Origin: a virus
Reading direction: 5' to 3' (one strand)
Length of the DNA: 64,000 bases
IMG/VR virus record: IMGVR_UViG_3300035695_000003
Location: 4,406-68,405 of that record
The notes beneath the pieces are model-generated. The model saw nothing but the letters and a program-made list of their open reading frames with translations. It ran no database searches and was not told where the DNA came from. Within the stretch, counting starts at the first letter, position 1, and the number at the start of each line of letters is the position of its first letter. Made by a program: the position numbers and the translations under genes. Positions 2,727 to 63,661 of the stretch are shown piece by piece.

Positions 2727-2870
2727 CGTCTCTCTCCTCTCTAAGAAGCCGAATATACTATCATGGACGCTTTCTGGCCAGCTTTCGTCGCTGAACGGCG
2801 ATCGCTCGAAAAGCGGCGCGCGTCTCCCGATCAAACCGGTCGACCTTCTTGCCCCGCGTTCGACCCTTCT
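2727..2870 (-). promoter_or_regulatory. AT-rich intergenic island with a sigma70-like -10 element for leftward transcription
   Basis: 144-nt gap. Minus strand reads ..CCATGATAGTATATTCGGCTTCTTAGAGAGGAGAGACGATG (TAGTATATT then SD then ATG). Confidence 0.3.
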
Positions 2871-5986: not shown

Positions 5987-6513
5987 TACAGGCCGATGCT
6001 CACCAGCGACACGAACGCCCGCGGCTTGGTCGGCGCGTCGAGCGCCGCCCCGAGCGCCAGCCGCGGCTCGATCTTGACCGGCAGCCCGAACACGCGGAAC
6101 AGCGTCAGTCCGCCCGACGACGCGTGCTTCGCCGCCGCGAGTGCCGAATCGTCGGCGGCCTTGAGATCGACGATCTCCTTGCGGAGCGTCGCGTTCTCCT
6201 TCTTCAGGTCCGAGATCTCGCCCGAGTCCGACGCCGCGGCCAGCTCGACCTTCGTGACGAGCGGCGCGCAGACCGGCGGGACGAGCTTCTCTGCCGCGCG
6301 AACGCCGGCCCACCGCGTCATGCGCACCGTGTCGGTCTTGGCAACGCGTCCGCCGAGGCTGTCCACCACGTGCTCGGCCGAGTCTGCCTCGGCCCTCAGT
6401 TCCTTGTTGGCGGCGAGCTCTGCGCGGACCGTCGGCCCCTTGACGAGACCGTCGACCGTCATGCCGGCGAAGAACGCCAGCACGACGACGATCAACCAAT
6501 AGCCGGCTTTCAT
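5986..6513 (-). CDS. membrane-anchored coiled-coil protein
   Basis: MKAGYWLIVVVLAFFAGMTV (TM) followed by a coiled coil (ISDLKKENATLRKEIVDLKAADD). ATGA coupling to the upstream gene. Confidence 0.55.
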   Translation of the reverse strand: MKAGYWLIVVVLAFFAGMTVDGLVKGPTVRAELAANKELRAEADSAEHVVDSLGGRVAKTDTVRMTRWAGVRAAEKLVPPVCAPLVTKVELAAASDSGEISDLKKENATLRKEIVDLKAADDSALAAAKHASSGGLTLFRVFGLPVKIEPRLALGAALDAPTKPRAFVSLVSIGL

Positions 6514-7857: not shown

Positions 7858-8340
7858 TCAGTCCTTGTAGAAGCGGAAGTATTCGCGGTCGATGTTGCCC
7901 GGGGGCACGACCTCGGTGCGCGTCGCGGCCCAGGCCGGCGCGGAGTCTTTCGGGACCATGGACGCGGGCGAATAGTACCACAGCGCGCCGAATCCCGGCG
8001 CGACAGCCAGGTATTCGCCCGACGACCAGACGTCGATGCAGCGCTGCACGTGCATCGGCTCCCAGAGCCCAGCCATCGCCTTGACCCAATAATCTTGCCG
8101 GCACACGGCGCTGAACTGGTTCTTCTGGAGCACGACCTCGACGGCCGTGCCCGGGAAGCGCGCGTCTGCCACCCGGTTCCTGATCACCTGACACACGGCC
8201 TTGATGGCCGGCACGATCATGTCCGCCGTGAACGTCCCCACGGGGGCGGGCGGGACCTCCGTCGCCGCCGTGCAGGCCACGACGTAGTCCGGCCCGTTGC
8301 AGTCGATCATGTCAAGTCTCCTCTCTTGGACGATCTTCAT
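7858..8340 (-). CDS. cell-wall hydrolase, SleB/CwlJ (Hydrolase_2) family; endolysin candidate
   Basis: MKIVQERR.. with ..VIRNRVADARFPGTAVEVVLQKNQFSAV.. (conserved QxNQFS core). The upstream 30 codons of the track ORF are the antisense of a tRNA. Confidence 0.65.
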   Translation of the reverse strand: MKIVQERRLDMIDCNGPDYVVACTAATEVPPAPVGTFTADMIVPAIKAVCQVIRNRVADARFPGTAVEVVLQKNQFSAVCRQDYWVKAMAGLWEPMHVQRCIDVWSSGEYLAVAPGFGALWYYSPASMVPKDSAPAWAATRTEVVPPGNIDREYFRFYKD

Positions 8341-8428
8341 GGCGCCGCCAGGATTCGAACCTGGGATGTTCACCACGTGGGTGGCGGTTTTACAGACCGC
8401 TGCCTTCAGCCTCTCAGACCACGTCGCC
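8340..8428 (-). tRNA. tRNA-Tyr (anticodon GUA), class II with a long variable arm
   Basis: Minus-strand sequence GGCGACG-UG-GUCU-GAGAGGCUGA-AGGC-A-GCGGU-CUGUAAA-ACCGC-CACCCACGUGGUGAACAUC-CCAGG-UUCGAAU-CCUGG-CGGCGCC-A. All four stems pair, with one A:G mismatch in the acceptor stem. Confidence 0.75.
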
Positions 8429-9230: not shown

Positions 9231-9824
9231 CTAGGCCTCGGCGCTGATCTGCGCCACCAGCCGGGGCAGCGTCCGCAGGCTCGCCCGCGTAGTCGTGCCC
9301 CGGAACAAGGACTTACGAAGCGCGTCCTGAGACGCCTTGAACGGCAGTTCCAGGAGCCCGTACTGGTTGAACGCCGCCAGCTCGAAGAGCCTGAGCAAGA
9401 ACCAGTCGTGCTCGACGCCGAGCAGGACGAACCCGCGTCCGCCGCTCGCCCGCCAGTCGATCAGCCAGCCGAGCTGGTCCGGCGTCAGCTCGATCGGGAT
9501 CTTCGTCTGGGGCCGCTTCGGCCAGGCCGGCACGTACTTGTGCTCGACCATGGCGACCTTGCCCTCGAAGCACGTGATGTCGTCCGGCGTGCCGCGGCCG
9601 GCGAAGCCTTCGGCCGGCAGCTTCCGGATGAAGGCGCGGTAGGTTTCTTTCCAGGCCCTGAGCACCGCGGCGCGGAAGGCCGCCTCGTCTTTCACCAGGG
9701 CCTCCAGCCTTTGATCCTGATCAGGGTCGGCCTCGTGTCCGAGAAGCACATCGCCTGGACCTCGTCCCAGCGAGCGATGTACCACGGATACCGACGTCCG
9801 CAGTGCGGGCAGGCGACGGTGCAC
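9231..9824 (-). CDS. hypothetical protein, possibly VRR-NUC/PD-(D/E)XK-like
   Basis: ..GTPDDITCFEGKVAMVEHKYVP.. (PD ... E-x-K spacing). The 5' third overlaps the deformylase 3' end (9692-9824), so the real start is probably internal. Confidence 0.35.
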   Translation of the reverse strand: MHRRLPALRTSVSVVHRSLGRGPGDVLLGHEADPDQDQRLEALVKDEAAFRAAVLRAWKETYRAFIRKLPAEGFAGRGTPDDITCFEGKVAMVEHKYVPAWPKRPQTKIPIELTPDQLGWLIDWRASGGRGFVLLGVEHDWFLLRLFELAAFNQYGLLELPFKASQDALRKSLFRGTTTRASLRTLPRLVAQISAEA

Positions 9825-10324
9825 TCGCCCGTCGTCGGATCTTTCTCAGCGCGGACGGGCTTGAACGGCGAGCCCCATTCGGTCGGGCCTATCCGCAGTC
9901 CGTGATCCGTGATCAGGACGCCGTCGAGATGATCGATCTCGTGCTGCGCGACCCGCGCCCGCATGCCGTTGAAGATGAATGGTTCGTCCGACTGCGAGTC
10001 CTTGACGACGATGCGCGTCGCGCGCCGAACGACGACGCTGACGCCCGGCAACGACAAGCAGCCTTCGAGTTGCGACCACGTCGACGTGCTGCGCTCGACA
10101 ATCACGGGGTTGACGAGCTTGATCCCCTGGACGTTGCAGACGCGCGCGTCGACGCCGATCTGCGGCGCGCTCAATCCCAGACCTAGGGCCGCGAAGCGCG
10201 TCCGTTCGAGTTCGTTGCTGATGTACCGCTCGGCGATCTCTTCGTCGAGCAGCACCCGCGCCTTCTTGCGAAGGTCCGGCGCGCCCTCGATCAGGACGAG
10301 CCTGAGCCCGTCGTCGTGCTTCAT
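9692..10324 (-). CDS. def: peptide deformylase with a C-terminal Cys-rich extension
   Basis: MKHDDGLRLV.., motif 1 GLSAPQIG, motif 2 EGCLSLPG, motif 3 HEIDHLDG; then ..GECTVACPHCGRR.. tail. Confidence 0.8.
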   Translation of the reverse strand: MKHDDGLRLVLIEGAPDLRKKARVLLDEEIAERYISNELERTRFAALGLGLSAPQIGVDARVCNVQGIKLVNPVIVERSTSTWSQLEGCLSLPGVSVVVRRATRIVVKDSQSDEPFIFNGMRARVAQHEIDHLDGVLITDHGLRIGPTEWGSPFKPVRAEKDPTTGECTVACPHCGRRYPWYIARWDEVQAMCFSDTRPTLIRIKGWRPW

Positions 10325-10611
10325 CGGCCCAGAGGCGGCGCCAGTCGGGTGCCGGGCGGCACGGCGAGGATCTTCGACTCGGGCGCGTCGTCGAGCGCGG
10401 TCTGGAAGAGCGCCACGATCCGGACGAGCTCGGCGCGACTGATCGGGTTCTGCGGCGTCTGAAGCACGAACAGCGTCACCGGAGGCGCGTTCGGATCTTG
10501 CACGACCGGCTTCGTCTCTGCCACGACGGCCAGCATGCCGCCCTGCGGGTTCTGCGGCGTCGGCTCGGAGAGCTCGACCCACCGCTTCTCGGAAAAGCTC
10601 TTCGTGGTCAT
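10321..10611 (-). CDS. hypothetical protein
   Basis: MTTKSFSEKRWVELSEPTPQN..; ATGA overlap with def. Confidence 0.5.
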   Translation of the reverse strand: MTTKSFSEKRWVELSEPTPQNPQGGMLAVVAETKPVVQDPNAPPVTLFVLQTPQNPISRAELVRIVALFQTALDDAPESKILAVPPGTRLAPPLGR

Positions 10612-11135
10612 GACTTCTCCTTCTTCGCGTAGAAGAGCGCGGCCGTCCCGGGCGACTTGGCCCGGTCGTCCACGAGGTTCCCGTGAGCGGTGGCGTCGGC
10701 GAGGATCGCCGCGCACGCGAGGATCGCGCCCAGGTTCGTGTTGCCTCTCTTGGAGTCGCGGTCGACGTCGTCGCCCGCCTCGTACGCCGCCACGTGGCGC
10801 TTGATCGCGGCGACGTAGACGCTGATCTTCACCGGCACGTCGCGGAAGTTGTACGCGCCGTACTTGTCCGCGCCTTCTTCCATCGTGTCGGCCGTCAACG
10901 CCGTAGCTGCCGGCGGCACGAGATGCAGCGCCAACTTCTTCGCGGCGGCCGCGGTCTTCGGATTGACTGCCGGCCGCTCAGGCGCGTTCTTGCCGTAACT
11001 GGCCCCGCATTTCGGACAGACCCAGAAGCCCTTGATCTTGTCGAGGATCGCCTCCTCGCATCCGAACTTGGTGCAGACGCTGGTCGGCGATAGGCCCTGG
11101 TCCTGATCCGTCGCGTAATTGGCGCGGGTCGTCAC
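10608..11135 (-). CDS. Zn-ribbon protein with a possible all-alpha NTP-pyrophosphohydrolase (MazG-like) domain
   Basis: GTG start in GTGA overlap. CTKFGCEE..CPKCG zinc ribbon; ..MEEGADKYGAYNFRD..NTNLGAILACAAILAD.. loosely resembles MazG/HisE-type EExxE helices. Confidence 0.4.
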   Translation of the reverse strand: MTTRANYATDQDQGLSPTSVCTKFGCEEAILDKIKGFWVCPKCGASYGKNAPERPAVNPKTAAAAKKLALHLVPPAATALTADTMEEGADKYGAYNFRDVPVKISVYVAAIKRHVAAYEAGDDVDRDSKRGNTNLGAILACAAILADATAHGNLVDDRAKSPGTAALFYAKKEKS

Positions 11136-11659
11136 GGCAACACCAGGGCCTTCACGACGTCGAGCCCCGACTGCAGGTCGCCCACGATGTAGCCCGCGAG
11201 CTGGTTCACCATCGCGTGGTGGTGCGGGTTCGTCTTGCCGAGCGCCACGACGTCCGTGGCGGCGTTCTTGACCGGCAGCGCCTGATACTCGACGCCGCCC
11301 TCCATGATCACGACGAGCGGCACGCGGAACGCGTCCGCCCATCCGATCTCGATCATGGACCCCACGGAGATGCGCTCGGCGCCGAGCAGGTTCATCAGCA
11401 CGACGTCGGCGCGACGCACGTCTTCCCGATCTCTGGTGCAGATGCCTTTCGGCGCGCTCAGGGGATGCACGCGCTGGTAGGCCTCGGGCGATCCGTCGAT
11501 CTTCTCCTCGCCTTTCAGGTACTGCTTCGCCCGCAGCGGGCTGAACCCGTCGATGTGCATCAGGTGCAGCGCGTACTTCGCCGCCTCGCGCCAGTCCGTC
11601 GCGCCGCCGTAGCTCAGGCCCGTGATCGGACCGGCAAGATAGACCCGGGGTCTGCTCAT
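11132..11659 (-). CDS. nucleoside 2-deoxyribosyltransferase-like protein
   Basis: N-terminal VYLAGPITG, ..ADVVLMNLLGAE..IEIGWADAFRVPLVVI.. typical of the Nuc_deoxyrib_tr/DNPH1-like fold. Confidence 0.55.
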   Translation of the reverse strand: MSRPRVYLAGPITGLSYGGATDWREAAKYALHLMHIDGFSPLRAKQYLKGEEKIDGSPEAYQRVHPLSAPKGICTRDREDVRRADVVLMNLLGAERISVGSMIEIGWADAFRVPLVVIMEGGVEYQALPVKNAATDVVALGKTNPHHHAMVNQLAGYIVGDLQSGLDVVKALVLP

Positions 11660-12168
11660 GCCGTCGTCTCTTTCGCCATGGCGTCCAGCACCGCCTGCGG
11701 CACCTTGCCGGGCTGCGCGGGCAGTGCCTTCGTCTTGCCCGTGGGCCTCGGCCTGAACAGCCGCGGGTCCTCGTGCCGTTGCATCAGCTGCTGTTGCGCG
11801 GCCGTCGCCTGGGCACGGGCGCGCTCGCGCCGGCTCATCGTGGCCTGGCGCACCTGCGCGTACAGCATCACCAGCTCTTGCGCCTGGAGCTGGGGATCGC
11901 CCGCCTCCGCGGCGACGGCCATGAGCTGCGCGATCCCGCCCACGCGGCGCTGGAGCGCGTCGCCCAGGCGCCCGCGCCGGCCCAGCACGTCGCCCAGCGT
12001 GCTCTGCAGCTTGGCGATCTCCATCGCCGCCGCCTGCGTCGCGACCTTGCTGACCACCAGCCCGTCCATGCCGCGCACGAGCCGGACGGCGAGGCCGAAG
12101 CGCAGCCGGCGCAGCGCCATCTTGACGCGCACGCCGAACGGCGGCCGCGGCATCGCGGGCATCGTCAC
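11656..12168 (-). CDS. hypothetical protein
   Basis: GTGA-coupled GTG start at 12168; moderate composition bias (A/R/Q-rich). Confidence 0.35.
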   Translation of the reverse strand: MTMPAMPRPPFGVRVKMALRRLRFGLAVRLVRGMDGLVVSKVATQAAAMEIAKLQSTLGDVLGRRGRLGDALQRRVGGIAQLMAVAAEAGDPQLQAQELVMLYAQVRQATMSRRERARAQATAAQQQLMQRHEDPRLFRPRPTGKTKALPAQPGKVPQAVLDAMAKETTA

Positions 12169-12380
12169 GGCGCCCGCGGGGCCCACGCCTCCGGCAGCCC
12201 CTCGGGTCTGAACTGGAGCCTGGAGATCTCCTCCGTCAGGAGCGTCGCCCGCTCCCCGTTCTTCCGCTCGACCAGCCAGCGCTTCGTCCATTCGCCCGTC
12301 TCCTTGGATTTCGTCTCGAACAAGAAGCAGCGCGGGACCTCTTCCCGCGCGCCGTTCGCGTACTCGACCAGGAAGGTCAC
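12165..12380 (-). CDS. hypothetical protein
   Basis: VTFLVEYANGAREEVPRCFLFETKSKETGEWTKRWLVERKNG..; GTGA overlap with the upstream gene. Confidence 0.45.
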   Translation of the reverse strand: MTFLVEYANGAREEVPRCFLFETKSKETGEWTKRWLVERKNGERATLLTEEISRLQFRPEGLPEAWAPRAP

Positions 12381-14926: not shown

Positions 14927-16771
14927 TCAGCGCGCCAGCTCGTTCGCGTCCATGGGATCGACGTTCTCTTGCAGCAGGTCGCGCATGTCGCGCCGGACGA
15001 CGCCGGCGTCGAGCGCCGCCTGCACGTAGGCCTGCAGCGCCTGGGCGCCGGTCTTGAGCCCTGCCCGGAGCGCCGCGTCCTTGATGCCGTCCTTCGCCTG
15101 CGCCGCCGTGGAGCCCGGATGCCGGCGCACCCAGTCCAGCACCACGGGGATCATGACGAGCGCCGGGTCGGGCGCCGCGTCCGTGACGCGGAACTCGGGC
15201 GGCGCGCCCGGATGCTCGACGAGCTCCGTCTCGAACGGGCGCCAGCCCACGATCCGACCGATCCCGATCGCCTCGCGGCGCGAGCCGCCGCCGCCCCGGT
15301 CGGGATTCCTGTAGATGATCACCTGGTCCACGGCACCGCCGATCGCCGTCGAGTCGCGGTACTCGTCCGAGGCGCCCTTCGGCGCGTGGTGGACGAGCGT
15401 GACCGCGGCGCCGCCCTTCTGGCAGACGCGTCGCAACGGGATCAGCGTGTTCACCCAGCCCGCGGATTGGCTCGCCTCTTCGACCGCCGCGAAGTGCGCC
15501 ATCGTGTCGATGACGACCCACGACGGATGAAGCCGTGTCAGCTCGGCCTCGAGCTCCGCGAGGCGACCGTCGAACTCGGCCGCGCGCGGGTACAAGACGT
15601 GCATCATCGCGGGGTCGCCGCCGAAGCGGACGAGGCGCTGCGCCACGTCGGCCTCGGGTTCTAAGTCGGCGCTTACCCAGAGCACGGAGCCCAGCGGACA
15701 CGTCTCGCCGAAGAACTTGCGACCGCGCGTCACCGCGGCCGCGGCGGCCGTCAGGAGCGTGGACTTGCCCGCCCACTTCTCGCGGCCCGCGAGCAGCGTC
15801 GTTCGGCCTTGCCAGGCGAGGCGCGGCACCACGGCGAGCGGCGGCCGCATCGTGTTCGGGTCTTTCAGGAGCTCTTCCACGCTGCGGGCGACGTTCGCCT
15901 CGGCCTCGACGCCGGCCCCGCCGCCCGGACGGGCCCGGCGCACCGTGTGCCGGAGCAGCGTGATCTGGTTGCGCGTCTCTTTCCACTTGTCGCGGAACAG
16001 CGCGCTCGCGGCCATCGCCTCGACGACGGCATTTTCCGTCGCGCCTGGCTGACGCCAGAGGATCTTCGCGAGGTCGAAGTCGGCCTCGGAGCGCCGACCT
16101 TCGTAGAACTCGCCCGCGTCGAACAAGGCAAAAAAGCGCCGCGCCTCGCGGCTGCCGCGCGCCTGCTCCACGAGCGACTTGGCCACGGCGTCGATCTCTG
16201 CCTGCGCCGCGGCCGGCGCGGGCGCCGTCGCCTCGGCGCCGCCCACGAACTTCTTGTGCAGGCCCGCGAGCGGCAGCGAGAGGTCCGGCAGCGCCGTCCG
16301 TCCCGGCTGCACCACGTCGCCCGTGATCGCGAAGTAGCGCGGGGACGACGCGTCGTACATCTCGACGTCGTCCTTGCGCTTGCCGCCCGCGGGGAGCGCG
16401 CCCCGCGCGATGAAGTGCAGTCCGGCGCCCGACTGGCTGCGCTCGACGTAGGCGCCCGCCAGCGCGCCCAGGAACTCGGCGGCGACGGCGTTCGGCCCGT
16501 CGGGCCCGAGCGCGTCGTCCAGGTCCACGCCGACGTACGACGTCGCCGTGAAGACGAACCCGACGCCCGAGTAGCCGCCGCCCGCGGCCAGCGCGAGCTG
16601 CGCGTCGCCGAACGACGCCCAGTCCCGCTCGTCCGTGGTCTTGGCCTTGCGACCGTCGATCGTGTACGGGACCTTCGTCTTCTTCGGACGCCCGACGTCT
16701 TCGAGACGCCAGAGCACCCACCGCTTGAGGCCGCGCAGCTCGGCCGGGATCTTCTCCGGATCGAGCGTCAC
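14927..16771 (-). CDS. bifunctional primase-polymerase (N-terminal) / P4-type replicative ATPase (C-terminal)
   Basis: Prim-Pol motifs ..VGVDLDD.. and ..SGAGLHF..; Walker A LAGREKWAGKSTL; Walker B ..WVVIDTM... Confidence 0.85.
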   Translation of the reverse strand: MTLDPEKIPAELRGLKRWVLWRLEDVGRPKKTKVPYTIDGRKAKTTDERDWASFGDAQLALAAGGGYSGVGFVFTATSYVGVDLDDALGPDGPNAVAAEFLGALAGAYVERSQSGAGLHFIARGALPAGGKRKDDVEMYDASSPRYFAITGDVVQPGRTALPDLSLPLAGLHKKFVGGAEATAPAPAAAQAEIDAVAKSLVEQARGSREARRFFALFDAGEFYEGRRSEADFDLAKILWRQPGATENAVVEAMAASALFRDKWKETRNQITLLRHTVRRARPGGGAGVEAEANVARSVEELLKDPNTMRPPLAVVPRLAWQGRTTLLAGREKWAGKSTLLTAAAAAVTRGRKFFGETCPLGSVLWVSADLEPEADVAQRLVRFGGDPAMMHVLYPRAAEFDGRLAELEAELTRLHPSWVVIDTMAHFAAVEEASQSAGWVNTLIPLRRVCQKGGAAVTLVHHAPKGASDEYRDSTAIGGAVDQVIIYRNPDRGGGGSRREAIGIGRIVGWRPFETELVEHPGAPPEFRVTDAAPDPALVMIPVVLDWVRRHPGSTAAQAKDGIKDAALRAGLKTGAQALQAYVQAALDAGVVRRDMRDLLQENVDPMDANELAR

Positions 16772-16980: not shown

Positions 16981-17162
16981 CGATCTGTCTCCGGTCTGGG
17001 TTCTGTCACGGCGGGCGACGATGATAGCATGGGTGCCCCGCCGGCGCCAGTGCCCCGGAGGAGCTCGGCGAGCGACAGCGTCGAAAACGAGGTCCGGCCA
17101 TCTTTCCAGTAGATCGCCACGCCTCTGGGGCCGACGAGCAGCAGGTGGACGACGTCGGTCAT
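16977..17162 (-). CDS. hypothetical protein
   Basis: MTDVVHLLLVGPRGVAIYWKDGRTSFSTLSLAELLRG.. Confidence 0.4.
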   Translation of the reverse strand: MTDVVHLLLVGPRGVAIYWKDGRTSFSTLSLAELLRGTGAGGAPMLSSSPAVTEPRPETDR

Positions 17163-17590
17163 GGTGTAGCCGACGGTCTGAAGAGAACGACCGGCTTGGC
17201 CTTTCCGTGCCATGCGCCTGCCAATGCCAGCAATTCGCGCTCGGGATCTGATCCCAAGATCGCCTGAAGCGCGATCCGATCGCCGATCGGAAGCGGTCTC
17301 CGGAGCTTCAACCAGACGTGACGATGCATCGCGCCGCTCTTCGACGGCAAGATGACTGGCTCGTCGAACGTGAGCACGTCGACGATGCCGCCGTGTTCCG
17401 CGGCGAGCGACTTCAAGAGCCTGAGTCCGTCAGAGAACCGGGACATGGCCGTGTCCGAGTCGACGTCCAGCTGGAGCGTCGTGTCGTCGGCGACGTCCGG
17501 GACCAGTCCCAGCTCGGCAGCGCGCCGCTCCATCCAGCCGTCGGTCAACGCGCCGAGTTCAGACTTCTTGAGGTACTTGAGATACGTCAT
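17159..17590 (-). CDS. hypothetical protein
   Basis: MTYLKYLKKSELGALTDGWMERRAAELG.. Confidence 0.5.
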   Translation of the reverse strand: MTYLKYLKKSELGALTDGWMERRAAELGLVPDVADDTTLQLDVDSDTAMSRFSDGLRLLKSLAAEHGGIVDVLTFDEPVILPSKSGAMHRHVWLKLRRPLPIGDRIALQAILGSDPERELLALAGAWHGKAKPVVLFRPSATP

Positions 17591-18033
17591 CGTTCCCCCG
17601 GATCCAGAAGGCCGAGCTGCCAGAAGAGCGACGGGTGGTGCGACGTGCCGAGCACCGCGTGGAGCAGCTCGTGGCGCACGGTCTTCGGGTCGTCGACGTG
17701 AAGGTCGGCCAAGAACACGGCATCGATCCCGTCGCCCACGTAGGCGCCGTAGCAGCGCGCCGCCCGGGCGCACGCGAAGGTGTTGCCCCTGAGCGCGTAG
17801 AACTGCAGGTCGTCGAAGCGCGCGGCCGGCCTGCACCCGCACTCCTGCACGAGCTCCGCCCACCAGATCCGGTATTGCGCGGGCGGGACGAAGGCGCGCG
17901 ACGCGTCGTGCGTCTCTACGACCCATCGTGCCAGCGCCTCGGGCGCCAGCGGGGCCTCGCGCGCGGGTCCCACGCAGGCGCCGATCAACAGCACGAACGC
18001 AAACGCAAGCTCAACCGTAGATGCGCACTTCAT
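17587..18033 (-). CDS. secreted lipoprotein with an HExxH zinc-metallopeptidase motif
   Basis: MKCASTVELAFAFVLLIGACVGP (lipobox); ..DPKTVRHELLHAVLG.. HExxH. Confidence 0.5.
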   Translation of the reverse strand: MKCASTVELAFAFVLLIGACVGPAREAPLAPEALARWVVETHDASRAFVPPAQYRIWWAELVQECGCRPAARFDDLQFYALRGNTFACARAARCYGAYVGDGIDAVFLADLHVDDPKTVRHELLHAVLGTSHHPSLFWQLGLLDPGER

Positions 18034-18490
18034 CGCATGCCTCCTTGTTGTGGCATTCGCCGCCATCGCAGTGGCACGTGTCTTCGTACGCTCCCCACAG
18101 ATGCCCGCACGTCTCGCACCGTCGTGACAGGCCAAACGGCCAGACGCGCCACGTCGGACCGCCGCGCCACTTGCCGACGAACGCGTGGCACTCGCGGCCC
18201 GCCCGCGTGACGAGCGTCTGCTCGTCGTAGCCCGACTCCAGCAGCCGGACGAACATGATCACCCGCTCGTTCTCGATCTCGAAGACCTCGCCCGCCATCT
18301 CGGTGCCTGGCCTCGGCACCGCGCAGGCGACGGTCCTCGGCAGCTCGGGCACCAGTGGACCGAACGCCGGTGCCAGGCTCCAGCCGTCCACGACGTCTTC
18401 CGCGACGAAGCTGACGCCGGCCTTCCCGGCCAGCATCCGGCCGTGCCAGGCCTGCCCGCGCTTCAGCGTGCCGTAGAAAAAGAACCTCAT
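18011..18490 (-). CDS. gamma-glutamyl cyclotransferase-like (AIG2/GGCT fold) with a C-terminal Cys/His cluster
   Basis: MRFFFYGTLKRG.. (YGTL motif); catalytic-Glu region EVFEIENE; C-terminal CETCGH..CHCDGGECHNKEAC. Confidence 0.75.
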   Translation of the reverse strand: MRFFFYGTLKRGQAWHGRMLAGKAGVSFVAEDVVDGWSLAPAFGPLVPELPRTVACAVPRPGTEMAGEVFEIENERVIMFVRLLESGYDEQTLVTRAGRECHAFVGKWRGGPTWRVWPFGLSRRCETCGHLWGAYEDTCHCDGGECHNKEACDEVRIYG

Positions 18491-20942: not shown

Positions 20943-21000
20943 GTGCCTCGCTTTCTCGTGTGCCGTAAGATAACATCTTTCACGCCGCAACGCCAGTGCG

Positions 21001-23993: not shown

Positions 23994-24227
23994 CTACTCC
24001 TCTTTCCGCAGGAAACCGGCCGCCACGAGCGAGGCCAAGAACCTCGCCGCCGTTGCCGGGTCGATCAGCGGGGCGCCCGGCCGCTGCTCGTGGCAGCGCC
24101 GGCTCACCTCGCGCATGTAGGGCCCCTTCTGGTCCATCTCCATCCACGCGGCGCGCGTCATCTTGCGCACCACGACCCGCGCCGTCGGGCCGGCGAACGT
24201 CTTGCCGCCGCCGTCCGCGTACCGCAT
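23994..24227 (-). CDS. hypothetical small protein translationally coupled to the GATase gene
   Basis: TGATG stop/start junction at 24225-24229; MRYADGGGKTFAGPTARVVVRKMTRAAWMEMDQKGPYMREVSRRCHEQ.. Confidence 0.4.
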   Translation of the reverse strand: MRYADGGGKTFAGPTARVVVRKMTRAAWMEMDQKGPYMREVSRRCHEQRPGAPLIDPATAARFLASLVAAGFLRKEE

Positions 24228-25246
24228 CAGTCCCCCTTTCCCGTCAGTGCCCGCCGCGCCTCGTCGCGCGCGGCCTCGTGGACCCACTTCCCGTCGCGCC
24301 ACTCGTCGCCGCGGCGCCAGCTGGTGGCCGCCACCGCGCACGAGGAACAGAGCCGGACCCCGTTGATCGTGGCCATCTCGAACGGCTTCCACAGGTCGAG
24401 GCACGACCCGCACTTCTCGTACTCCTGGCCGTTCTGGCCCCAGATCTTCGTCGTGCCGAGCTGGGCGCGCCGTTTCTTGCCGCCCTTCTTCTGCGTCTTC
24501 CCGGCCCACCACCAGCTGGCCCGCGGGCTCTCGCCCGGCCGGTAGCGCACGAGCACGCCTTCGTCCAGCTCGCTGGTGCCGTTGCACGTGAGCCGGCTCA
24601 GCTCGACGGCGGCCGTCAAGATGTCCTTCGTGCTCGCGAAGGCCACCGCGTTCAGCTCGGCGACCCGCGTCCGCCACAGGGGATTCCCGCGCCGCGTCAG
24701 CCACAGCTCGGGCTCTCCGTCCGTGCCCTGTCGGCCCAGCGCCAGCGCCAGCGAGCCCTCGGCGCGCCGGAGCATCTTGCCCCAGCCGGCCGCGGGCTCG
24801 ACCGCGAGCGCCGCGATGAGGTTCGCCGAGTCGACGGCGTAGGTCGTGCCGCCCCGCGCGACGAACCGCGCGTGGTTGTTGATCACGCCGTTGTGCACGC
24901 CGACCGTCTCCGTGCCGTCCTCGTCCGCGAAGGCGAACGGGTGCGCGTTGGCGTCGGTCACCGCGCCGTGCGTGGCGAACCGCGTGTGCCCCACCAGCGC
25001 GAGCGTCGCGCCGTTCGGGACCACGAGGGCCTTCCATGCCGGATCGGCGATCAGCTCCCACGCGGGCACCGCCCGCTTGAGCACGTGCGCTGGCTCGCCC
25101 GCGTCCAGCCTGTACAGGCCGGCCGAGTCCGTCCCCCGCGCCGTCGAGAGCGCCGCCAGGCTCGCCGCGAGGCGCGCCCAGCCTGCCTTCTCGGCCTCGG
25201 TCAGCGCCGGGCCCTTCGTTCTGATGATGCCGTAGATGCCGCACAT
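24227..25246 (-). CDS. class-II (Ntn-type) glutamine amidotransferase-like protein with a C-terminal Zn-finger
   Basis: Starts MCGIYGIIRT (Cys-2 nucleophile, hallmark of GATase-II/Ntn hydrolases); ..HTRFATHG..NAHPF.. core; C-terminal CGSCLDLWKPFEMATINGVRLCSSC. Confidence 0.8.
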   Translation of the reverse strand: MCGIYGIIRTKGPALTEAEKAGWARLAASLAALSTARGTDSAGLYRLDAGEPAHVLKRAVPAWELIADPAWKALVVPNGATLALVGHTRFATHGAVTDANAHPFAFADEDGTETVGVHNGVINNHARFVARGGTTYAVDSANLIAALAVEPAAGWGKMLRRAEGSLALALGRQGTDGEPELWLTRRGNPLWRTRVAELNAVAFASTKDILTAAVELSRLTCNGTSELDEGVLVRYRPGESPRASWWWAGKTQKKGGKKRRAQLGTTKIWGQNGQEYEKCGSCLDLWKPFEMATINGVRLCSSCAVAATSWRRGDEWRDGKWVHEAARDEARRALTGKGD

Positions 25247-25721
25247 CGTCTGCCGTTCTCCTTTCAGCGGAACGCGTAATGATAACACAAACTGCTGCCG
25301 ACGACCATCCCGAGTCGGCGTCGATGCTACTATCTCTGCTGTCAGATAATCTGACAGTCGATCCGATGTTACCAATCGTCGTGTTCGGAAACGGCCTGAA
25401 CACGTGTCGCACAAGTGTTTAGCGTGTTCGCGAGTGTTCGGAACACCGTCGCTGGCCGCGTAACTTCTTATGCCGCTTTTGTTCAGGTGCTCTCGGGCAA
25501 AATCGTCATTGCTAACATCACCTCCGTTCTGGGTCCACGGAACGCCGTAACTTCTTATGCCGCTTTTGTTCCGCGTGTTCCGCGAACAGCCGGAACATTG
25601 GCATTGGCGTCGTGTTCCGCCTGTTCAGACCCTTAGGTCTGAACGGCGAACACCCATGCCCGTGTCAGAACACCTTCGATCATGGCGCCGCGAGGAGTCG
25701 AACCCCGTCGGCGCGGTCTGC
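25247..25721. promoter_or_regulatory. palindrome- and repeat-dense regulatory island (operator cluster and/or origin)
   Basis: 19-bp perfect palindrome CTGTCAGATAATCTGACAG (25339-25357). At least 5 GTGTTC...GAACAC inverted repeats (25381-25403, 25426-25446, 25576-25592, 25609-25655 nested). 26-bp direct repeat CGTAACTTCTTATGCCGCTTTTGTTC at 25459-25484 and 25546-25571. Confidence 0.5.
25681..25706 (-). other. tRNA 3'-end-like fragment (24/26 identical to the 3' end of the tRNA-Tyr gene at 8338-8363); candidate att core or tRNA remnant
   Basis: catggcgccgcGaggaGtcgaacc versus catggcgccgcCaggaTtcgaacc. The remainder does not fold into a tRNA. Confidence 0.4.
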
Positions 25722-25916
25722 CTACTTCAGGTACAGCACCCAGCCCCGCCGGGTGACCGCCATGCCGTGGTCGATGCCCTGGTCCGTCATGAAGGCAGCG
25801 ACCTCGCCCGCCGTGCTGCCGTTGGTGAACAGCGCCTTGCCCTGCTCGATCACGAAGCCTGCCAGCCTGGCGATCGTCGCCTGGCCGAGCACGCCTCCTC
25901 TCGCGATGCGCGTCAT
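25722..25916 (-). CDS. small protein encoded directly downstream of the amidoligase gene
   Basis: SD GAAAGGACG 8 nt before ATG 25916; MTRIARGGVLGQATIARLAGFVIEQGKALFTNGSTAGEVAAFMTDQGIDHGMAVTRRGWVLYLK. Confidence 0.5.
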   Translation of the reverse strand: MTRIARGGVLGQATIARLAGFVIEQGKALFTNGSTAGEVAAFMTDQGIDHGMAVTRRGWVLYLK

Positions 25917-25935: not shown

Positions 25936-27090
25936 TCAGGCGGCCCGCCGGAAGGCGGTCCGGTAATAGTCGGGGTTCCGGTCGAACGTCCACCGCGCCA
26001 GCGTCCGCTGGACGGCGTCGCCCATCACGATCCGCGCGAGCGACCAGCGCCGCGCTTCCGTCCACGGGGGCAGCACGCGGCGCGCCGCCTGCCGCTCCGT
26101 GCCGTCCCACGTCCGCGTCCGCTGCACGTGCAGCTCCAGCGCCCTGTCGAGCTGGTCGTCCGTGCAGCGCTGCGCGAAGTCGACCACCCGCTGCGTCGCG
26201 AGCAGCCACCAGCCTGCCTTGTTCGCGTCGAGCGTGCCCTGATGCGCCCGCATCTCGACGCGGCCGTGCCGCCACCAGTTGGTGAGGTTCAGCGCCTGGT
26301 AGCGCCCGAGCCTGCGCACGTGCGCCGGCAGATCCGTCAGCGCCGCCGAGTCTTCTGCGAACTCGCGACCCCAACGCTCGGCAAACGTGTTGCGCCGCCT
26401 GTCCGTGGGCAGCGCCTCGTGCAACGGCGTGTCGAGCGCGCCCCAGAGCCTGATCAGTCGCTGGACGAAGCCCGTCGTCCGCGCGACCCGCGCCTCGTGA
26501 TGCACGTGGAAGCCGCAGCGCCTGTCGACCCGCGCGCCCGCCGCGACCAGCGCGTTCAGCACGGCCACGACCATCGGCCAGCTCGCCGCCGTGATGGCCG
26601 GCGTCACCATCTCCCACTCGCAGCTGCCGTCGGCCTTGACGTCCCACGTTCGCCCGGTCGAATGGCGATACTCGTGATCGTCGCTGACCTGCTGTTCCGG
26701 CCACGGCGCGAGCGCTTCCCGCACCACGTCGGCCCACTCCGAGCCCGAGCGATATCGCGCGCCCGGCCCGCTCGGGTTGACGAACTCGAACTCCAGCCCG
26801 AAGCGCCGCCGCTGGTCCAGCATCGCTGGATCGAACAGCTCGCCCGGCCCGTCGGGATCGCCCGACCAGCCGATCGGATCCGGCACCGCGTCTGGCAGCG
26901 TCAGCGGGCTCGCCGGCAATTGCCGGCTTCCCCGTTGCCGCGGCCCGCGCGCCGCCTCGCTCCGGTAATACGACAGCGTGTGTCGGGGATCGGCGCAGGT
27001 CGGATGCCTGTCTCTCAGCATCCGCAGCACCGCGTCGTCCGACGCGCCGTTCGCGATGTACTCGCGAACGTCATGCGCTATCGAAGGCAC
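25936..27090 (-). CDS. amidoligase-family (GCS2/glutamine-synthetase-like COOH-NH2 ligase) protein with an N-terminal ~45-aa repeat domain
   Basis: GTG start after AAAGGGGG. N-terminal VREYIANGASDDAVLRMLRDRHPTCADPRHTLSYYRSEAARG (the repeat domain), a linker, then ..RFGLEFEFVNPSG.. (amidoligase G-x-E-x-E-F start) and ..CGFHVHHE... Confidence 0.65.
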   Translation of the reverse strand: MPSIAHDVREYIANGASDDAVLRMLRDRHPTCADPRHTLSYYRSEAARGPRQRGSRQLPASPLTLPDAVPDPIGWSGDPDGPGELFDPAMLDQRRRFGLEFEFVNPSGPGARYRSGSEWADVVREALAPWPEQQVSDDHEYRHSTGRTWDVKADGSCEWEMVTPAITAASWPMVVAVLNALVAAGARVDRRCGFHVHHEARVARTTGFVQRLIRLWGALDTPLHEALPTDRRRNTFAERWGREFAEDSAALTDLPAHVRRLGRYQALNLTNWWRHGRVEMRAHQGTLDANKAGWWLLATQRVVDFAQRCTDDQLDRALELHVQRTRTWDGTERQAARRVLPPWTEARRWSLARIVMGDAVQRTLARWTFDRNPDYYRTAFRRAA

Positions 27091-27180: not shown

Positions 27181-27224
27181 GTAACAACCACGTAACGGAA
27201 TTGTAACAATCGTGTAACAAAACG
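27181..27224. repeat. four tandem 11-bp GTAAC iterons upstream of the amidoligase gene
   Basis: GTAACAACCAC|GTAACGGAATT|GTAACAATCGT|GTAACAAAACG; GTAAC at 27181, 27192, 27203, 27214 (one helical turn apart). Confidence 0.6.
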
Positions 27225-28080: not shown

Positions 28081-28404
28081 TCACGCCGCCGCGGCGCGCC
28101 GCGCTTCGCGCTGGTAGAACCGCAGCGTCCGGCGCGGGTTGACGCAGGTCGGATACTTCTCCATCACCATCTGCAGAATCGCCCGCTCGTCCGTCCCCGC
28201 CGCCAGCGCCGCCCTGACGTCTGCCGCGATTCCGCCGCGGGGCTTGACGTCAAGCGAAAACGCCGTCCGCGCTTCGCTCTTGTAGTACGCCAGGGTCCGC
28301 GCCGCATTCGCCGTCGCGGGAAAATCGCTGTGAATCATCGCCAGGATCTGCTCGTCGGACTGGCCAGCGGCCAGGGCACTGCGCACGGCCTGCGCGGTAG
28401 TCAT
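28081..28404 (-). CDS. protein made of two tandem copies of the ~45-aa repeat domain that also heads the amidoligase
   Basis: Repeat 1 VRSALAAGQSDEQILAMIHSDFPATANAARTLAYYKSEAR; repeat 2 VRAALAAGTDERAILQMVMEKYPTCVNPRRTLRFYQREAR; SD AAAGGGA before ATG 28404. Confidence 0.6.
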   Translation of the reverse strand: MTTAQAVRSALAAGQSDEQILAMIHSDFPATANAARTLAYYKSEARTAFSLDVKPRGGIAADVRAALAAGTDERAILQMVMEKYPTCVNPRRTLRFYQREARRAAAA

Positions 28405-28956
28405 TTTGACTCGTCCCTTTCTTGCGACACTCGCGTCAGCGCTACAGTGCAGCGTCCGCGCGATGTCAATCTTTCATACGGGGTAGCGCCCCGCGCGCCG
28501 CGAACCATCCTTCCGCCCGCGTGACCTAAAGCTACTAGCTTTATGGCGTAAAGCTAGTAACAATCGTGTAACGGAAAACCGTATATTTATAAGTCCCTCC
28601 GCCCCATGCCCGAGCACGAAAAATGTATAACTATACAGCCCGGTGAATAATTATTCATTTCATCGCGTCCGCGCGACATGCGCAGCGTGCGCGCTGCAAG
28701 ATAATGGCTCAAAGGCTGAAGGACGAAGGTCCGTCGCGCCGGCGCTGCAATTTCGGGGCGGGGGGTGCTGGAAAATCGGGCGGGGGCACTAGTCCGGCGA
28801 ATCGCATCCGGAATCGAGACTGATCCAGACCATGCGCGGACAACGGCTTGCAGCCCGTGGTCCCAGAACCTGGAAGCATGATTCGCGACGGTTCGCACGT
28901 GCGCCCACGATGCGCGCACTGGCGCGCACGACCCTCTCGACCTAGGTTCGCGACAC
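28405..28956. promoter_or_regulatory. AT-richer divergent control region between the leftward early and rightward late modules
   Basis: TTGACA at ~28448 (minus strand). GTAAC iterons AGTAACAATCGTGTAACGG (28555-28573). 15-bp palindrome AAAGCTACTAGCTTT (28526-28540). 12-bp perfect palindrome GAATAATTATTC (28644-28655). Bipartite motif at 28916-28951 (see findings). Confidence 0.5.
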
Positions 28957-62642: not shown

Positions 62643-63410
62643 TCATGCCTTCCTCAGGTGCCAGCAGTTGTTCCGGCACGCGTCCGGGTATAGCGGCGCC
62701 AGGAACGTGCAGAGCACGTCGTAGGAGTAGTAGGCCGAGAGCTCCGCCATCAGCGCGCGCTGCTCCTCGGTGGCCGCCTTCTTGAGGGCCGGGATGTTCC
62801 CGAACGTCCCGAAGCGGCGCACCACCCGCCAGCCGCCTTCGGCGAAGAGGTCCGCCAGCTCCTGGACCTCGAACTCGTGGATGTGGTTCCGCGCCCGCGC
62901 CTTGCCGTCGTAGACGGGTGTCGAGACGAGGAAGTCGATCCCCTCGTCGGCGACCCGCGCGACGTTCTTGACGAGCCTGAGCGCGCTCGCGGGCTGCATG
63001 TGCTCGACGACCTCGAAGCAGGTCGCGAGCTGGAACGGCCCGAACGGCTGCACCTTCGCGAAGCCCTCCTCCGAGGTGAAGTCCGTCTCGTCGAGGATCT
63101 TCACGCGGTCGATGTCGGGCTTGTCCTTGATCTTGTTCAGGTCGACCCCGACGTACTGGACCGGGAGCCGAGACTGGTACGGCGTGCCCACGAGCACCTT
63201 CATCAGGGGCAGCTCGGGCCCGCAGCCCACGTCCAGGACGTTCTGGCCGCCCGGCGCGAAGCGGCTGGCGAAGCCCCAGCGGAAGTAGTGCGCCGCGTAG
63301 TCGCGATGCACCCACTTCCCGTGGACCCGCTCGTGCAGGCTCGTCTTGTCGAAGTCGCGCTCGCCGCGCTCGTCTGCGCCGCGGCGGATCGGCTGAGCAC
63401 TCGTCGTCAT
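62643..63410 (-). CDS. class I SAM-dependent methyltransferase
   Basis: MTTSAQPIRR..; motif I VLDVGCGPE, post-I ..VGVDLN.., ..CFEVVEHM... Confidence 0.7.
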   Translation of the reverse strand: MTTSAQPIRRGADERGERDFDKTSLHERVHGKWVHRDYAAHYFRWGFASRFAPGGQNVLDVGCGPELPLMKVLVGTPYQSRLPVQYVGVDLNKIKDKPDIDRVKILDETDFTSEEGFAKVQPFGPFQLATCFEVVEHMQPASALRLVKNVARVADEGIDFLVSTPVYDGKARARNHIHEFEVQELADLFAEGGWRVVRRFGTFGNIPALKKAATEEQRALMAELSAYYSYDVLCTFLAPLYPDACRNNCWHLRKA

Positions 63411-63661
63411 CGTCCCCCCTCCGGTTGATCGTCGCTCTGCGCGGGCCGCGCGTCGACGAACCGCAGCAGCCGCGCGCTCTTGCACCAGGTCACGGTCGTG
63501 CCGTCCGGCACCGCGACCGCGTGGTTCCCGAACAGGATCACCTGCGTCTGCAACGGCCGGCACGTCGGCGCCGTAACCGACACGATCATCGTCCCGGCGA
63601 GGAACCCTGCCAGCGCCGTGATGAAGCCGAGGGCGAACGCCCCACGATCTTTGTCGTTCAC
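63407..63661 (-). CDS. small membrane protein
   Basis: GTGA-coupled; ..GAFALGFITALAGFLAGTMIVSV.. Confidence 0.4.
   Translation of the reverse strand: MNDKDRGAFALGFITALAGFLAGTMIVSVTAPTCRPLQTQVILFGNHAVAVPDGTTVTWCKSARLLRFVDARPAQSDDQPEGGR

Follow-up and report, generated by a model that had tools for sequence, protein, structure and literature searches.

Operator/promoter clusters of phages are exemplified by OR/OL of lambda and by the face-to-face pR and pL of coliphage 186. Small dimeric proteins bind cooperatively to arrays of short repeats in the case of the omega repressor heptads of pSM19035 and of the ParG boxes of the parH centromere. Iterons are usually phased on the helical repeat, and those of P4 ori and crr, with the sequence TGTTCACC, are bound by the alpha primase-helicase. 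Morons, known from lambdoid phage genomics, are independent cassettes located between adjacent genes of one phage and absent from its relatives. A tRNA 3'-end fragment adjoining direct and inverted repeats is the textbook layout of an attP site.

The island described here, a 475-bp repeat-rich gap between genes of an uncultivated phage, was analysed within a 64,000-nucleotide stretch of the phage genome (hereafter, the window). It resembles the lambda and 186 clusters in bringing together palindromic sites and promoter-like elements within a non-coding segment of a few hundred bp that heads an early transcription unit, and 186 in that two promoter-like elements converge on one palindrome. Unlike in lambda and 186, a repressor gene is neither adjacent nor recognisable, the spacings between half-sites vary, and the region, whose promoter/operator activity we infer, lies within an operon as a recent insertion and not in an immunity region. 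With the omega heptads and ParG boxes the island shares a 5-bp core repeated in direct and inverted orientation, a sub-helical spacing of 8–10 bp and ->-> <-<- blocks, but its core sequence is unrelated, and no RHH protein and no ParA/ParF partner is detectable in the phage. We favour, with a probability of roughly one half, the interpretation of the island as an acquired internal promoter/operator region.

The repeat island and its half-sites

The gap at 25247–25721 is non-coding. GC content is flat across codon positions of the ORFs that can be drawn in it (0.55/0.57/0.53), while genuine genes here have a GC3 of ~0.9. The gap is located directly 5' of the minus-strand class-II glutamine amidotransferase (GATase) gene, whose ATG is at 25246, in agreement with the initial annotation, which had placed it upstream of the GATase operon. 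The genes around the gap and the repeats in it are the following:

24227..25246, minus strand: class-II glutamine amidotransferase gene, 339 aa (MCGIYG..., Pfam GATase_6), the first gene downstream of the island
25247..25721, no strand: repeat island, 475-bp non-coding gap with a GC content of 56.2%, the minimum among the gaps of the window
25722..25916, minus strand: orphan ORF64, 64 aa, GC3 0.94 (true coding bias), co-inserted with the island
25936..27090, minus strand: Amidoligase_2 gene, which directly adjoins the GATase gene in all relatives
25254..25274, no strand: variant inverted pair CGTTC-N11-GAACG, flanking the GATase ribosome-binding site (GGAG) on both sides
25339..25357, no strand: 19-bp perfect palindrome CTGTCAGATAATCTGACAG, candidate operator between face-to-face promoter-like elements
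25381..25404, no strand: inverted pair GTGTTC-N11-GAACAC
25416..25446, no strand: half-site cluster TGTTTAGCGTGTTCGCGAGTGTTCGGAACAC, three direct half-sites and one inverted
25459..25484, minus strand: 26-bp direct repeat, copy B, same sequence as copy A
25525..25544, no strand: variant inverted pair CGTTC-N10-GAACG, between both direct repeats
25546..25571, minus strand: 26-bp direct repeat, copy A, GAACAAAAGCGGCATAAGAAGTTACG on the minus strand (GAACA-N15-GTTACG)
25567..25597, no strand: 31-bp imperfect palindrome of two inverted 14-mer units, TGTTCCGCGTGTTC-CGC-GAACAGCCGGAACA; ->-> <-<-, spacings 9, 8, 9
25609..25655, no strand: nested imperfect palindrome in which TGTTC-N4-TGTTC and GAACG-N3-GAACA flank a 14-nt palindromic centre; a ->-> <-<- unit

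The 19-bp palindrome and the two perfect 26-bp direct repeats, 87 bp apart, had been pointed out before, and both are present as described. The palindrome occurs once in the window, and the direct repeats have no further copy there even with 3 mismatches allowed. At least five GTGTTC-Nx-GAACAC inverted repeats had also been counted; three to four exact pairs are found as hexamers, and the others hold only as pentamers. The nested palindrome exists, but its centre is GTTCAGACC-CTTA-GGTCTGAAC, with the next base of the right arm being G and not A (GAACG).

A search of the window revealed that 9 of its 55 GTGTTC/GAACAC hexamers fall within 25381–25673, a clustering matched by none of 20,000 random placements. 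Exact TGTTC/GAACA pentamers occur 14 times in the 475 bp, or 2.95 per 100 bp compared to 0.25 window-wide (12-fold). The clustering of these half-sites in the island is highly significant. Counted as (T/C)GTTC, ~20 half-sites are present, arranged in ->-> <-<- units with a phasing of 9 bp (range 8–10). Inverted pairs have spacings of 1, 3, 10, 11 and 13 nt, and since these vary, the pairs do not fit a simple dimeric repressor. Copies of the 14-mer unit scattered outside the island were discarded, those at 47272 and 6088 lying in coding frames.

Neither close to the island nor elsewhere in the 68-kb genome could a repressor, HTH or RHH protein be recognised, in line with the earlier remark that no repressor is obvious in the vicinity. 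The accompanying suggestion that RHH proteins are encoded at 16768 and 28957 did not hold, as no RHH or other DNA-binding match was found with Pfam and PHROGs, lenient thresholds included.

Several known classes of sites were considered and rejected. The Verrucomicrobia LexA box, TGTTC-N4-GAACA, has half-site pentamers identical to those of the island (PMC4951493). Unlike this box, the island, with the pair spacings given above, has no N4 dyad; its best match to the box has 3 mismatches, and the window contains none within 1 mismatch and six scattered ones at 2. A scan for LexA operators of four clades (TGTTC-N4-GAACA, GAAC-N4-GTTC, GTTC-N7-GTTC and CTGT-N8-ACAG, as defined in PMC4951493) gave best matches with 1–3 mismatches and none exact. 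A parS/parC centromere was dismissed, with no partition genes found and 5 mismatches out of 15 in the best parS match. For a CRISPR mini-array, no Rfam CRISPR-DR family was matched at E <= 10, and only two 26-nt repeats with a 61-nt spacer make an atypical geometry. As regards T7-like phage promoters, the 26-mer has no other copies, and an RNA polymerase gene is absent from the phage, though present in one relative. An ECF-sigma-type promoter (GGAAC-N16-18-GTT) in the direct repeats was discounted too: the motif occurs 4 times in the window compared to 3.6 expected, and its matches in the island are a by-product of the high GAACA density.

Megablast and blastn searches against GenBank phages returned no homologue of the island. 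Scanning viral and metagenome contigs for exact island patterns produced unrelated low-GC matches only, collagen-like coding repeats among them, and the 26-mer had zero copies in metagenome contigs. Judged by these searches, the repeat island is unique to this uncultivated phage.

Promoter-like elements and shared early motifs

The extended -10 motif TGnTAnnnT occurs four times in the island, compared to 0.35 expected from the island composition, and 1 of 5,000 shuffles contained four. These elements, together with two related features outside the island, are:

25279..25287, minus strand: extended -10-like element TGTTATCAT, 33 nt upstream of the GATase ATG
25325..25333, plus strand: extended -10-like element TGCTACTAT, rightward (antisense), facing into the palindrome
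25366..25374, minus strand: extended -10-like element TGGTAACAT, leftward, presumed transcription start ~2 nt before the palindrome
25510..25518, plus strand: extended -10-like element TGCTAACAT, rightward, between the direct repeats
27181..27218, minus strand: four direct repeats of GTTAC(A/G), spaced by exactly 11 bp and located 5' of the amidoligase gene
28557..28572, minus strand: exact 16-mer GTTACACGATTGTTAC, related control element of the divergent early region

All six TGnTAnnnT matches in a 13-kb stretch with contig gene calls are confined to the non-coding 15%, and elsewhere in the phage extended -10 motifs are restricted to non-coding DNA upstream of early genes. TATCAT has 4 copies in 64 kb, and three of them, on the minus strand (17021, 25279 and 27164), are located just upstream of the leftward replication operon, GATase gene and amidoligase gene. 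The element TGTTATCAT is likely the proximal promoter of the GATase gene; the CGTTC-N11-GAACG pair lies just downstream of it. The 19-bp palindrome is situated exactly between two converging -10 elements, 5 and 8 nt from them. A full -35/-10 sigma-70 scan passed zero promoters across the 16.5-kb early region, and promoters are therefore called here by the -10 element only.

Each 26-bp repeat contains GTTACG, a motif common to two other early control regions. In the window GTTAC is under-represented (15 copies compared to ~25 expected), and 9 of the 15 copies lie in three early non-coding regions, 8 of those 9 on the transcribed strand. Two of the three GTTAC-bearing early regions also have the exact 16-mer GTTACACGATTGTTAC in common. 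The multi-operator switch put forward in the initial annotation thus gains indirect support from the enrichment of -10 motifs, from the palindrome placed between facing motifs and from the sharing of GTTACG with other early regions, but a cognate regulator is not recognisable.

The 689-bp insertion and its tRNA-Tyr-like hairpin

The island and ORF64 together constitute a 689-bp insertion that splits the amidoligase–GATase gene pair. In six related GATase lineages (40–52% identity) the distance between the two genes ranges from -22 to +103 nt, and no counterpart of ORF64 or of the island is present at these loci. No homologue of ORF64 was found among 5.8 billion proteins; HMMER matches were artefacts from tandem-repeat proteins, and the predicted fold is uninformative. 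By comparison of gene order, the 689-bp segment is a moron-type insertion between genes adjacent in relatives. Like morons, it is found in one genome between genes that abut in relatives and consists of an orphan ORF and lower-GC DNA. Unlike in morons, the order is ORF first and then the repeat-rich non-coding gap of 475 bp, the segment is not bracketed by its own promoter and terminator, and the cassette seems to give resident downstream genes a promoter. Two relatives, L013 and L016, have a large gap beside the amidoligase–GATase pair with palindromes and different repeats, GAGCAC at 11-bp spacing, which are clearest in L016.

At the beginning of the island a tRNA-like element was found:

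25685..25714, minus strand: hairpin GCGCCG-A-CGGGG-TTCGACT-CCTCG-CGGCGC, starting 7 nt past the ORF64 stop codon and resembling a tRNA T-arm plus acceptor 3' strand

Positions 25680–25704 are identical at 23 of 25 nucleotides, on the same strand, to the 3' terminus of the tRNA-Tyr that the phage itself encodes (8337–8361), and the local alignment with tRNA-Tyr scores 40, compared to a maximum of 33 over 1,454 random genome pieces. Of the tRNA parts, the hairpin has the T-arm and the 3' acceptor strand only. No tRNA or tmRNA was detected in the gap by ARAGORN or by an Rfam scan at gathering thresholds, and the Rfam tRNA model was absent at E <= 10. A match to the tRNA-like family mascRNA-menRNA was obtained at 25684–25740 (minus strand) with 28.5 bits and E = 0.0013, below the gathering score. 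Paralogy of the island and the tRNA-Tyr locus past the 25-nt core was rejected, since flank alignments did not surpass shuffles. The hairpin distal to ORF64 has z = -1.4, which is unexceptional for GC-rich sequence, and lacks a U-tract.

Since a tRNA 3'-end fragment beside ~400 bp of direct and inverted repeats follows the attP layout, and since the segment is demonstrably inserted (the genes abut in relatives), we considered whether the island could be an attP-like site, relic or active, or the scar of a mobile insertion, with the tRNA 3' end as core and the repeats as arm-type sites. Such an origin appears quite unlikely. No integrase, excisionase or transposase is encoded by the circular genome of 68.3 kb, of which the 4.3 kb beyond the window were covered too, and representative genomes from 185,579 species contain no exact copy of the 22-nt tRNA end. 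A degenerate scan for the tRNA end yielded 54 unrelated tRNAs or fragments, with no tRNA-Tyr and none like the fragment, whose closest relative is the tRNA-Tyr of the phage itself. The insert junctions show no target-site duplication, their similarity being no higher than among other gene starts.

The hairpin also bears on a possible function at the RNA level. The sense transcript would then form stable stem-loops headed by the tRNA-like structure, acting as processing sites (for RNase P, Z or III), as stabilisers or in translational control of GATase. Folding of the entire gap does surpass that of shuffles (z = -3.95), and as RNA the nested palindrome attains -34.4 kcal/mol (z = -6.9), but DNA palindromes fold as RNA too, so folding scores cannot separate the two readings. 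Also in favour are the T-stem of the hairpin, in which pairing is preserved by a compensatory change from C-G in the phage tRNA-Tyr to G-C, its G-U pairs, which are functional only in sense RNA, and the bracketing of the GATase ribosome-binding site by an inverted pair. The match to a tRNA-like Rfam family points the same way, though it is under the gathering score and its statistical support is limited to the 25-nt 3' core. Among the ->-> <-<- units, pentamer sequences do not vary, whereas the 4-nt spacers are divergent and non-complementary between the arms (2x2 internal loops, a 2-nt indel), the opposite of what selection for hairpins predicts. This pattern of conservation is, as far as the compared units indicate, of protein type and not of hairpin type. 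We consider an RNA-level role of the island unlikely and retain the interpretation of the island as a promoter/operator region.

A possible replication origin versus proposed transcription control

An iteron-type origin was the other function proposed for the island in the initial annotation. An initiator, perhaps the primase-helicase or ORF64, would recognise the TGTTC units and 26-bp repeats as iterons, and the origin would be activated by transcription from the promoters of the island. With a replisome of its own (PolA, an NrS-1-like primase with an AAA_25 helicase, SNF2), the phage needs an origin, and the island, the gap with the lowest GC, offers numerous short repeats of either orientation, a pair of perfect direct repeats and promoter-like elements. 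Like P4 with its ori and crr, the phage has a primase-helicase and carries a repeat containing TGTTC in both orientations, and the closest island copy, TGTTCGCC, has one mismatch to the P4 iteron. The island differs from P4 in several respects: an exact P4 iteron and an AT-rich element are both missing, relatives lack the segment, and the replicase of the phage is of another family (NrS-1-like HBD and AAA_25).

Other features argue against an origin at this place. The AT-richest 40-mer of the island has 57.5% AT compared to the window maximum of 72.5% at 28621–28660, in the divergent region. No DnaA box is found in the island within 2 mismatches, and GC skew has no inflection at 25.5 kb, its sole trend change being at ~29 kb. 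The primase-helicase gene (14927–16771) is 8.5 kb away, the neighbours of the island being the amidoligase gene, the orphan ORF and the GATase gene, with no initiator among them. Multiple repeat copies are present (~20 half-sites, and two 26-bp repeats 87 bp apart), but the 9-bp phasing (8–10) differs from the helical 10.5–11 or 21–22 usual for iterons, a mixed result. Finally, the segment is an insertion missing in all six relatives, which implies that the ancestral origin is located elsewhere. The proposal of an iteron-type origin is not supported by these data, and we regard it as unlikely. From its sequence features, the island is most likely a promoter-and-binding-site region for downstream early genes and not a replication origin.

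In the scheme that we infer, the island, as the non-coding part of a lineage-specific insertion into an ancestrally contiguous gene pair, would serve as internal transcription control for GATase and the leftward early genes behind it. Transcripts from upstream would read through the amidoligase gene and ORF64 and then reach the stable tRNA-Tyr-derived hairpin, where they may be ended or processed. Transcription would restart within the island from host-type extended -10 promoters, TGGTAACAT (25374–25366) and TGTTATCAT (25287–25279). The 19-bp palindrome would be the site for a dimeric regulator controlling both face-to-face promoter elements. The ~20 (T/C)GTTC half-sites and the two GAACA-N15-GTTACG repeats might bind one or two further proteins cooperatively, which would set promoter activity or timing.

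A bolder version, which we hold to be highly improbable, would make the whole 689-bp insert a portable, self-contained control cassette of an undescribed kind. Its components would be an orphan gene, a tRNA-derived hairpin for ending or processing transcripts, and a ~20-site array serving as a titration sponge or nucleoprotein insulator for a TGTTC-binding host or phage protein, and the resident metabolic and replication operon would thereby be rewired.

If the island does act as a promoter/operator region, it would be a clear case of rewiring of a phage operon, in which a short insertion splits a conserved, translationally coupled pair and brings new promoters and binding sites to all downstream genes, those for replication included. 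Current understanding would not be overturned, and the value of the locus is mainly that of a well-defined experimental target. Half-sites of the form gTGTTC(c/g)G in 9-bp-phased ->-> <-<- units, GTTAC repeats at 11 bp and TGnTATCAT elements may be used as probes for finding regulators in this high-GC phage lineage. Of minor interest is the hairpin derived from tRNA-Tyr, a possible example of how tRNA fragments come to be reused as RNA signals. As a separate observation, the phage lineage appears to have a DNA-modification gene set.

Repeat content and layout of the island

The 475-bp non-coding gap at 25247-25721 (the island) is bounded by the stop codon of ORF64 (25722), an orphan 64-aa reading frame, and the ATG (25246) of the class-II glutamine amidotransferase (GATase) gene, both on the minus strand. 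Its GC content, 56.2%, is the lowest of any non-coding stretch in the window, and the ORFs inside it do not have the codon-position GC bias typical of real genes. Every element listed in the initial annotation was found. Neither the perfect 19-bp palindrome (25339-25357) nor the perfect 26-bp direct repeat (copies at 25459 and 25546) recurs elsewhere in the window when up to 3 mismatches are tolerated. Of the window's 55 GTGTTC/GAACAC hexamers, nine fall inside 290 bp, as do 14 of its 161 TGTTC/GAACA pentamers; 0 of 20,000 random placements matched either count, and pentamer enrichment was detected in no other gap of the window. The repeat clustering is real and far beyond chance.

Elements of the island in the order read on the transcribed (minus) strand; arrows are half-site orientations
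Hairpin GCGCCG-A-CGGGG-TTCGACT-CCTCG-CGGCGC, 7 nt past the ORF64 stop codon
Two ->-> <-<- units, each arm TGTTC-N4-TGTTC with 9-bp phasing
Direct-repeat copy A (25546-25571), CGTTC-N10-GAACG pair, direct-repeat copy B (25459-25484)
-> <- <- cluster, GTGTTC-N11-GAACAC pair, 19-bp palindrome
CGTTC-N11-GAACG pair, the last element, bracketing the GATase ribosome-binding site

Half-sites follow the consensus gTGTTC(c/g)G. Their pentamers do not vary; the 4-nt spacers inside the arms do (CGGC, CGCG, CGCC, TAGC), with no complementarity between arms, as protein recognition would predict and selection on an RNA or cruciform stem would not. Known grammars that use this half-site were checked and discarded, namely LexA boxes of four clades (definitions from PMC4951493), parS and an ECF-type promoter; NrS-1-type primase recognition motifs (PMC8718748) are too short to inform. 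The sole exact copy of the 14-mer unit TGTTCCGCGTGTTC outside the island, at 6088-6101 (-) within the SNF2 helicase gene, encodes LFRVFG and is probably a codon-usage coincidence.

The island and ORF64 as an insertion with a tRNA-like hairpin

A search of 5.8 billion proteins revealed 13 GATase homologues besides itself at E <= 1e-10, the closest 40-55% identical. The distance between the amidoligase (Amidoligase_2, 25936-27090 (-)) and GATase genes is -22 to +103 nt in six of six lineages with recovered gene order and 689 bp in this phage; no counterpart of ORF64 or of the island's non-coding DNA was found at the relatives' loci. Judged by this comparison, the island and ORF64 are an insertion splitting the amidoligase-GATase pair. 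An insertion of this kind could be a relic of recombination; no target-site duplication was found, the two junctions are no more alike than other gene starts, and we consider this reading of the island unlikely. ORF64 itself has no homologue among the 5.8 billion proteins. Its full-HMMER matches were only summed weak matches to polyubiquitin-like tandem-repeat proteins, regarded as artefacts, and a single-sequence structure model (pLDDT 72) had no significant structural neighbour.

Upstream of their amidoligase gene, the two related lineages L013 and L016 have a large gap of 0.8-1 kb that is likewise rich in repeats. Those repeats are unrelated to the ones here: GAGCAC at 11-bp spacing, clearest in L016, and a CTTTGCGACACAAAG palindrome. 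The GAGCAC repeats stand where this phage has its GTTAC array (27181-27218), so the layout is conserved there and the sequence is not.

Compared with the rest of the window, the island matches best at 25680-25704, which overlaps the hairpin; the partner is 8337-8361, the 3' end of the phage tRNA-Tyr (23/25, same strand), extending 3 nt past the discriminator base. The local alignment score is 40, compared with a maximum of 33 among 1,454 random genome pieces; outside the 25-nt core similarity is not significant. Two changes set the T-stem apart from that of tRNA-Tyr, C-G to G-C (compensatory) and A-T to G-T, and both preserve base pairing in the sense RNA. The tRNA-like Rfam family mascRNA-menRNA matches with 28.5 bits (E = 0.0013), short of the gathering score of 42.5, by pairing CGGCGCC with GGUGCUG, which lies within the final part of ORF64; the minimum-energy fold favours a simple 11-bp hairpin instead. 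No full tRNA was called in the island by ARAGORN or by an Rfam gathering-threshold scan, and the Rfam tRNA model was absent at E <= 10. It is unlikely that the island is an RNA-level processing or stability element.

Representative genomes of 185,579 species do not contain the exact 22-nt tRNA end, and a degenerate 3'-end pattern matched 54 tRNAs or tRNA fragments, all unrelated and none for Tyr. Together with the match to the phage tRNA-Tyr, this argues that the hairpin is a piece of a tRNA-Tyr like the phage's own and not of a sequenced host tRNA. Given such an origin and the absence of an integrase (the window and the 4.3 kb beyond it yielded no integrase, no partition protein and no recognisable repressor), reading the hairpin or island as attP is unlikely.

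For many of the bacterial matches to the degenerate pattern (loci L030, L031, L043, L053, L062 and others), no tRNA was called within 95 nt upstream; such matches may mark the ends of integrated elements, as leftover tRNA 3' fragments. The phage tRNA-Tyr (8340-8428 (-)) has anticodon GTA, a long variable arm and an A-G mismatch in the acceptor stem (GGCGACG/CGGCGCC); no bacterial tRNA-Tyr with its 3' end was found among the 185,579 species.

Predicted early control signals and the proposed role of the island

The genome of this high-GC (~68%) tailed phage is circular in assembly at ~68,278 bp (68,308-bp Logan contig, single assembly). GenBank phages gave zero nucleotide matches to the window, and the terminase is only ~30% identical to Streptomyces phage terminases. 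Genes lie on the minus strand from 1 to ~28,400 and on the plus strand from 28,957. The phage's proteins include DNA polymerase A, an NrS-1-like primase plus AAA_25 helicase, an exonuclease and the SNF2 helicase; a tRNA-Tyr gene and a rich nucleotide-metabolism set are also carried.

A full -35/-10 sigma-70 scan of the 16.5-kb early region gave zero matches. A -35 element is not always required: extended -10 promoters can function in its absence. Of the 11 extended -10 motifs (TGnTAnnnT) in the window, four are in the island, where 0.35 are expected from its own dinucleotide composition (four were reached by 1 of 5,000 shuffles). All six copies in the 13 kb with contig gene calls, 15% of it non-coding, are non-coding. 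Of the four TATCAT hexamers in 64 kb, three lie on the minus strand and closely precede leftward genes.

Promoter-like and GTTAC motifs
25374-25366 and 25287-25279, leftward: extended -10 copies, island
25325-25333 and 25510-25518, rightward: extended -10 copies, island
33 nt before the GATase ATG, minus strand: TGTTATCAT (TATCAT), the copy at 25287-25279
Just upstream of amidoligase, minus strand: TATCAT copy
17021-17029 (-): TGCTATCAT (TATCAT), upstream of the operon with a 70-aa protein and the primase-helicase
27181-27218 (-): upstream of amidoligase, direct repeats of GTTAC(A/G), four copies spaced by exactly 11 bp
28557-28572 (-): two GTTAC, divergent early region
Island: three GTTAC, one per 26-bp repeat and a third at 25368-25372 on the other strand, inside the TGGTAACAT element

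Two converging -10 elements flank the 19-bp palindrome, one hexamer 5 nt and the other 8 nt away from it; a protein bound to the palindrome would cover both predicted start sites. Further extended -10 motifs occupy short gaps that immediately precede leftward genes: TGCTATCAT, TGTTATCTT (20967-20975 (-)) and TGATAGTAT (2755-2763 (-)). One of the genes behind them is the head of a replication operon, and together they may outline an early promoter signature.

GTTAC is under-represented in the window (15 copies, ~25 expected), and nine copies lie in three non-coding regions within 3.2 kb, eight of them on the transcribed strand; 0 of 20,000 random placements reached this clustering. On the minus strand each 26-bp repeat reads GAACA-N15-GTTACG, and the amidoligase-upstream array and the divergent early region (28557-28572) have an exact 16-mer, GTTACACGATTGTTAC, in common. 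The motif thus ties the island to what are predicted to be the other early control regions.

The initial annotation had proposed a multi-operator switch or an iteron-type replication origin. The former agrees with the promoter-motif enrichment and the palindrome between converging -10s; the latter was not supported. Many repeats, low GC, predicted internal promoters and a likeness to the P4 iteron are generic resemblances to an origin. Against them, the island reaches at most 57.5% AT over 40 bp, compared with 72.5% at 28621-28660, no DnaA box, GC-skew inflection or adjacent initiator gene was found, repeat phasing is 9 bp, and the whole insert is missing from every relative. An origin in the island is therefore unlikely. 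If one is near, the divergent intergenic region 28405-28956 is a better candidate, as it is for early promoters; AT content over 40 bp reaches its window maximum there (28621-28660), and a perfect inverted repeat of 11 bp, TACTAGCTTTA/TAAAGCTAGTA, lies at 28533-28559.

The most economical explanation, with a probability of about 0.5, is that the island is an acquired internal promoter/operator region: the insertion would have split the operon, and the island would then re-drive GATase and downstream early genes. The figure is no higher because promoter activity and all protein binding are predictions and no recognisable repressor was found. The island is best filed as an uncharacterised example of an already known element type.

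The nucleotide-metabolism and modification genes lie at 9692-12291, 17587-18135 and 62643-63563 and in the 4.3 kb outside the window (L019:3283-8387). They encode a thymidylate-synthase-like protein, dGTP_diPhyd_N, two nucleoside deoxyribosyltransferases, a MazG-like PRA-PH protein, an AAA_33 kinase-like protein, a C5 DNA methylase, Methyltransf_23, a GGACT-like protein, amidoligase and GATase, a combination that suggests a DNA hypermodification pathway. The phage also carries peptide deformylase (9692-10582 (-)), an auxiliary gene better known from cyanophages. The N-terminal ~56 residues of the amidoligase (26923-27090 (-)) are paralogous to the repeated domain of a 107-aa protein (28081-28404 (-)) encoded by the first gene of the leftward operon (DNA repeat 26946-27033 and 28095-28182, 72% identity; both proteins match phrog_17767). 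A 77-aa gene directly after GATase (23994-24227 (-)) keeps its position in relatives (76-79 aa there); its product has a weak, sub-threshold HTH_IclR match (E = 0.006) and may bind DNA as a partner of the amidoligase/GATase module.
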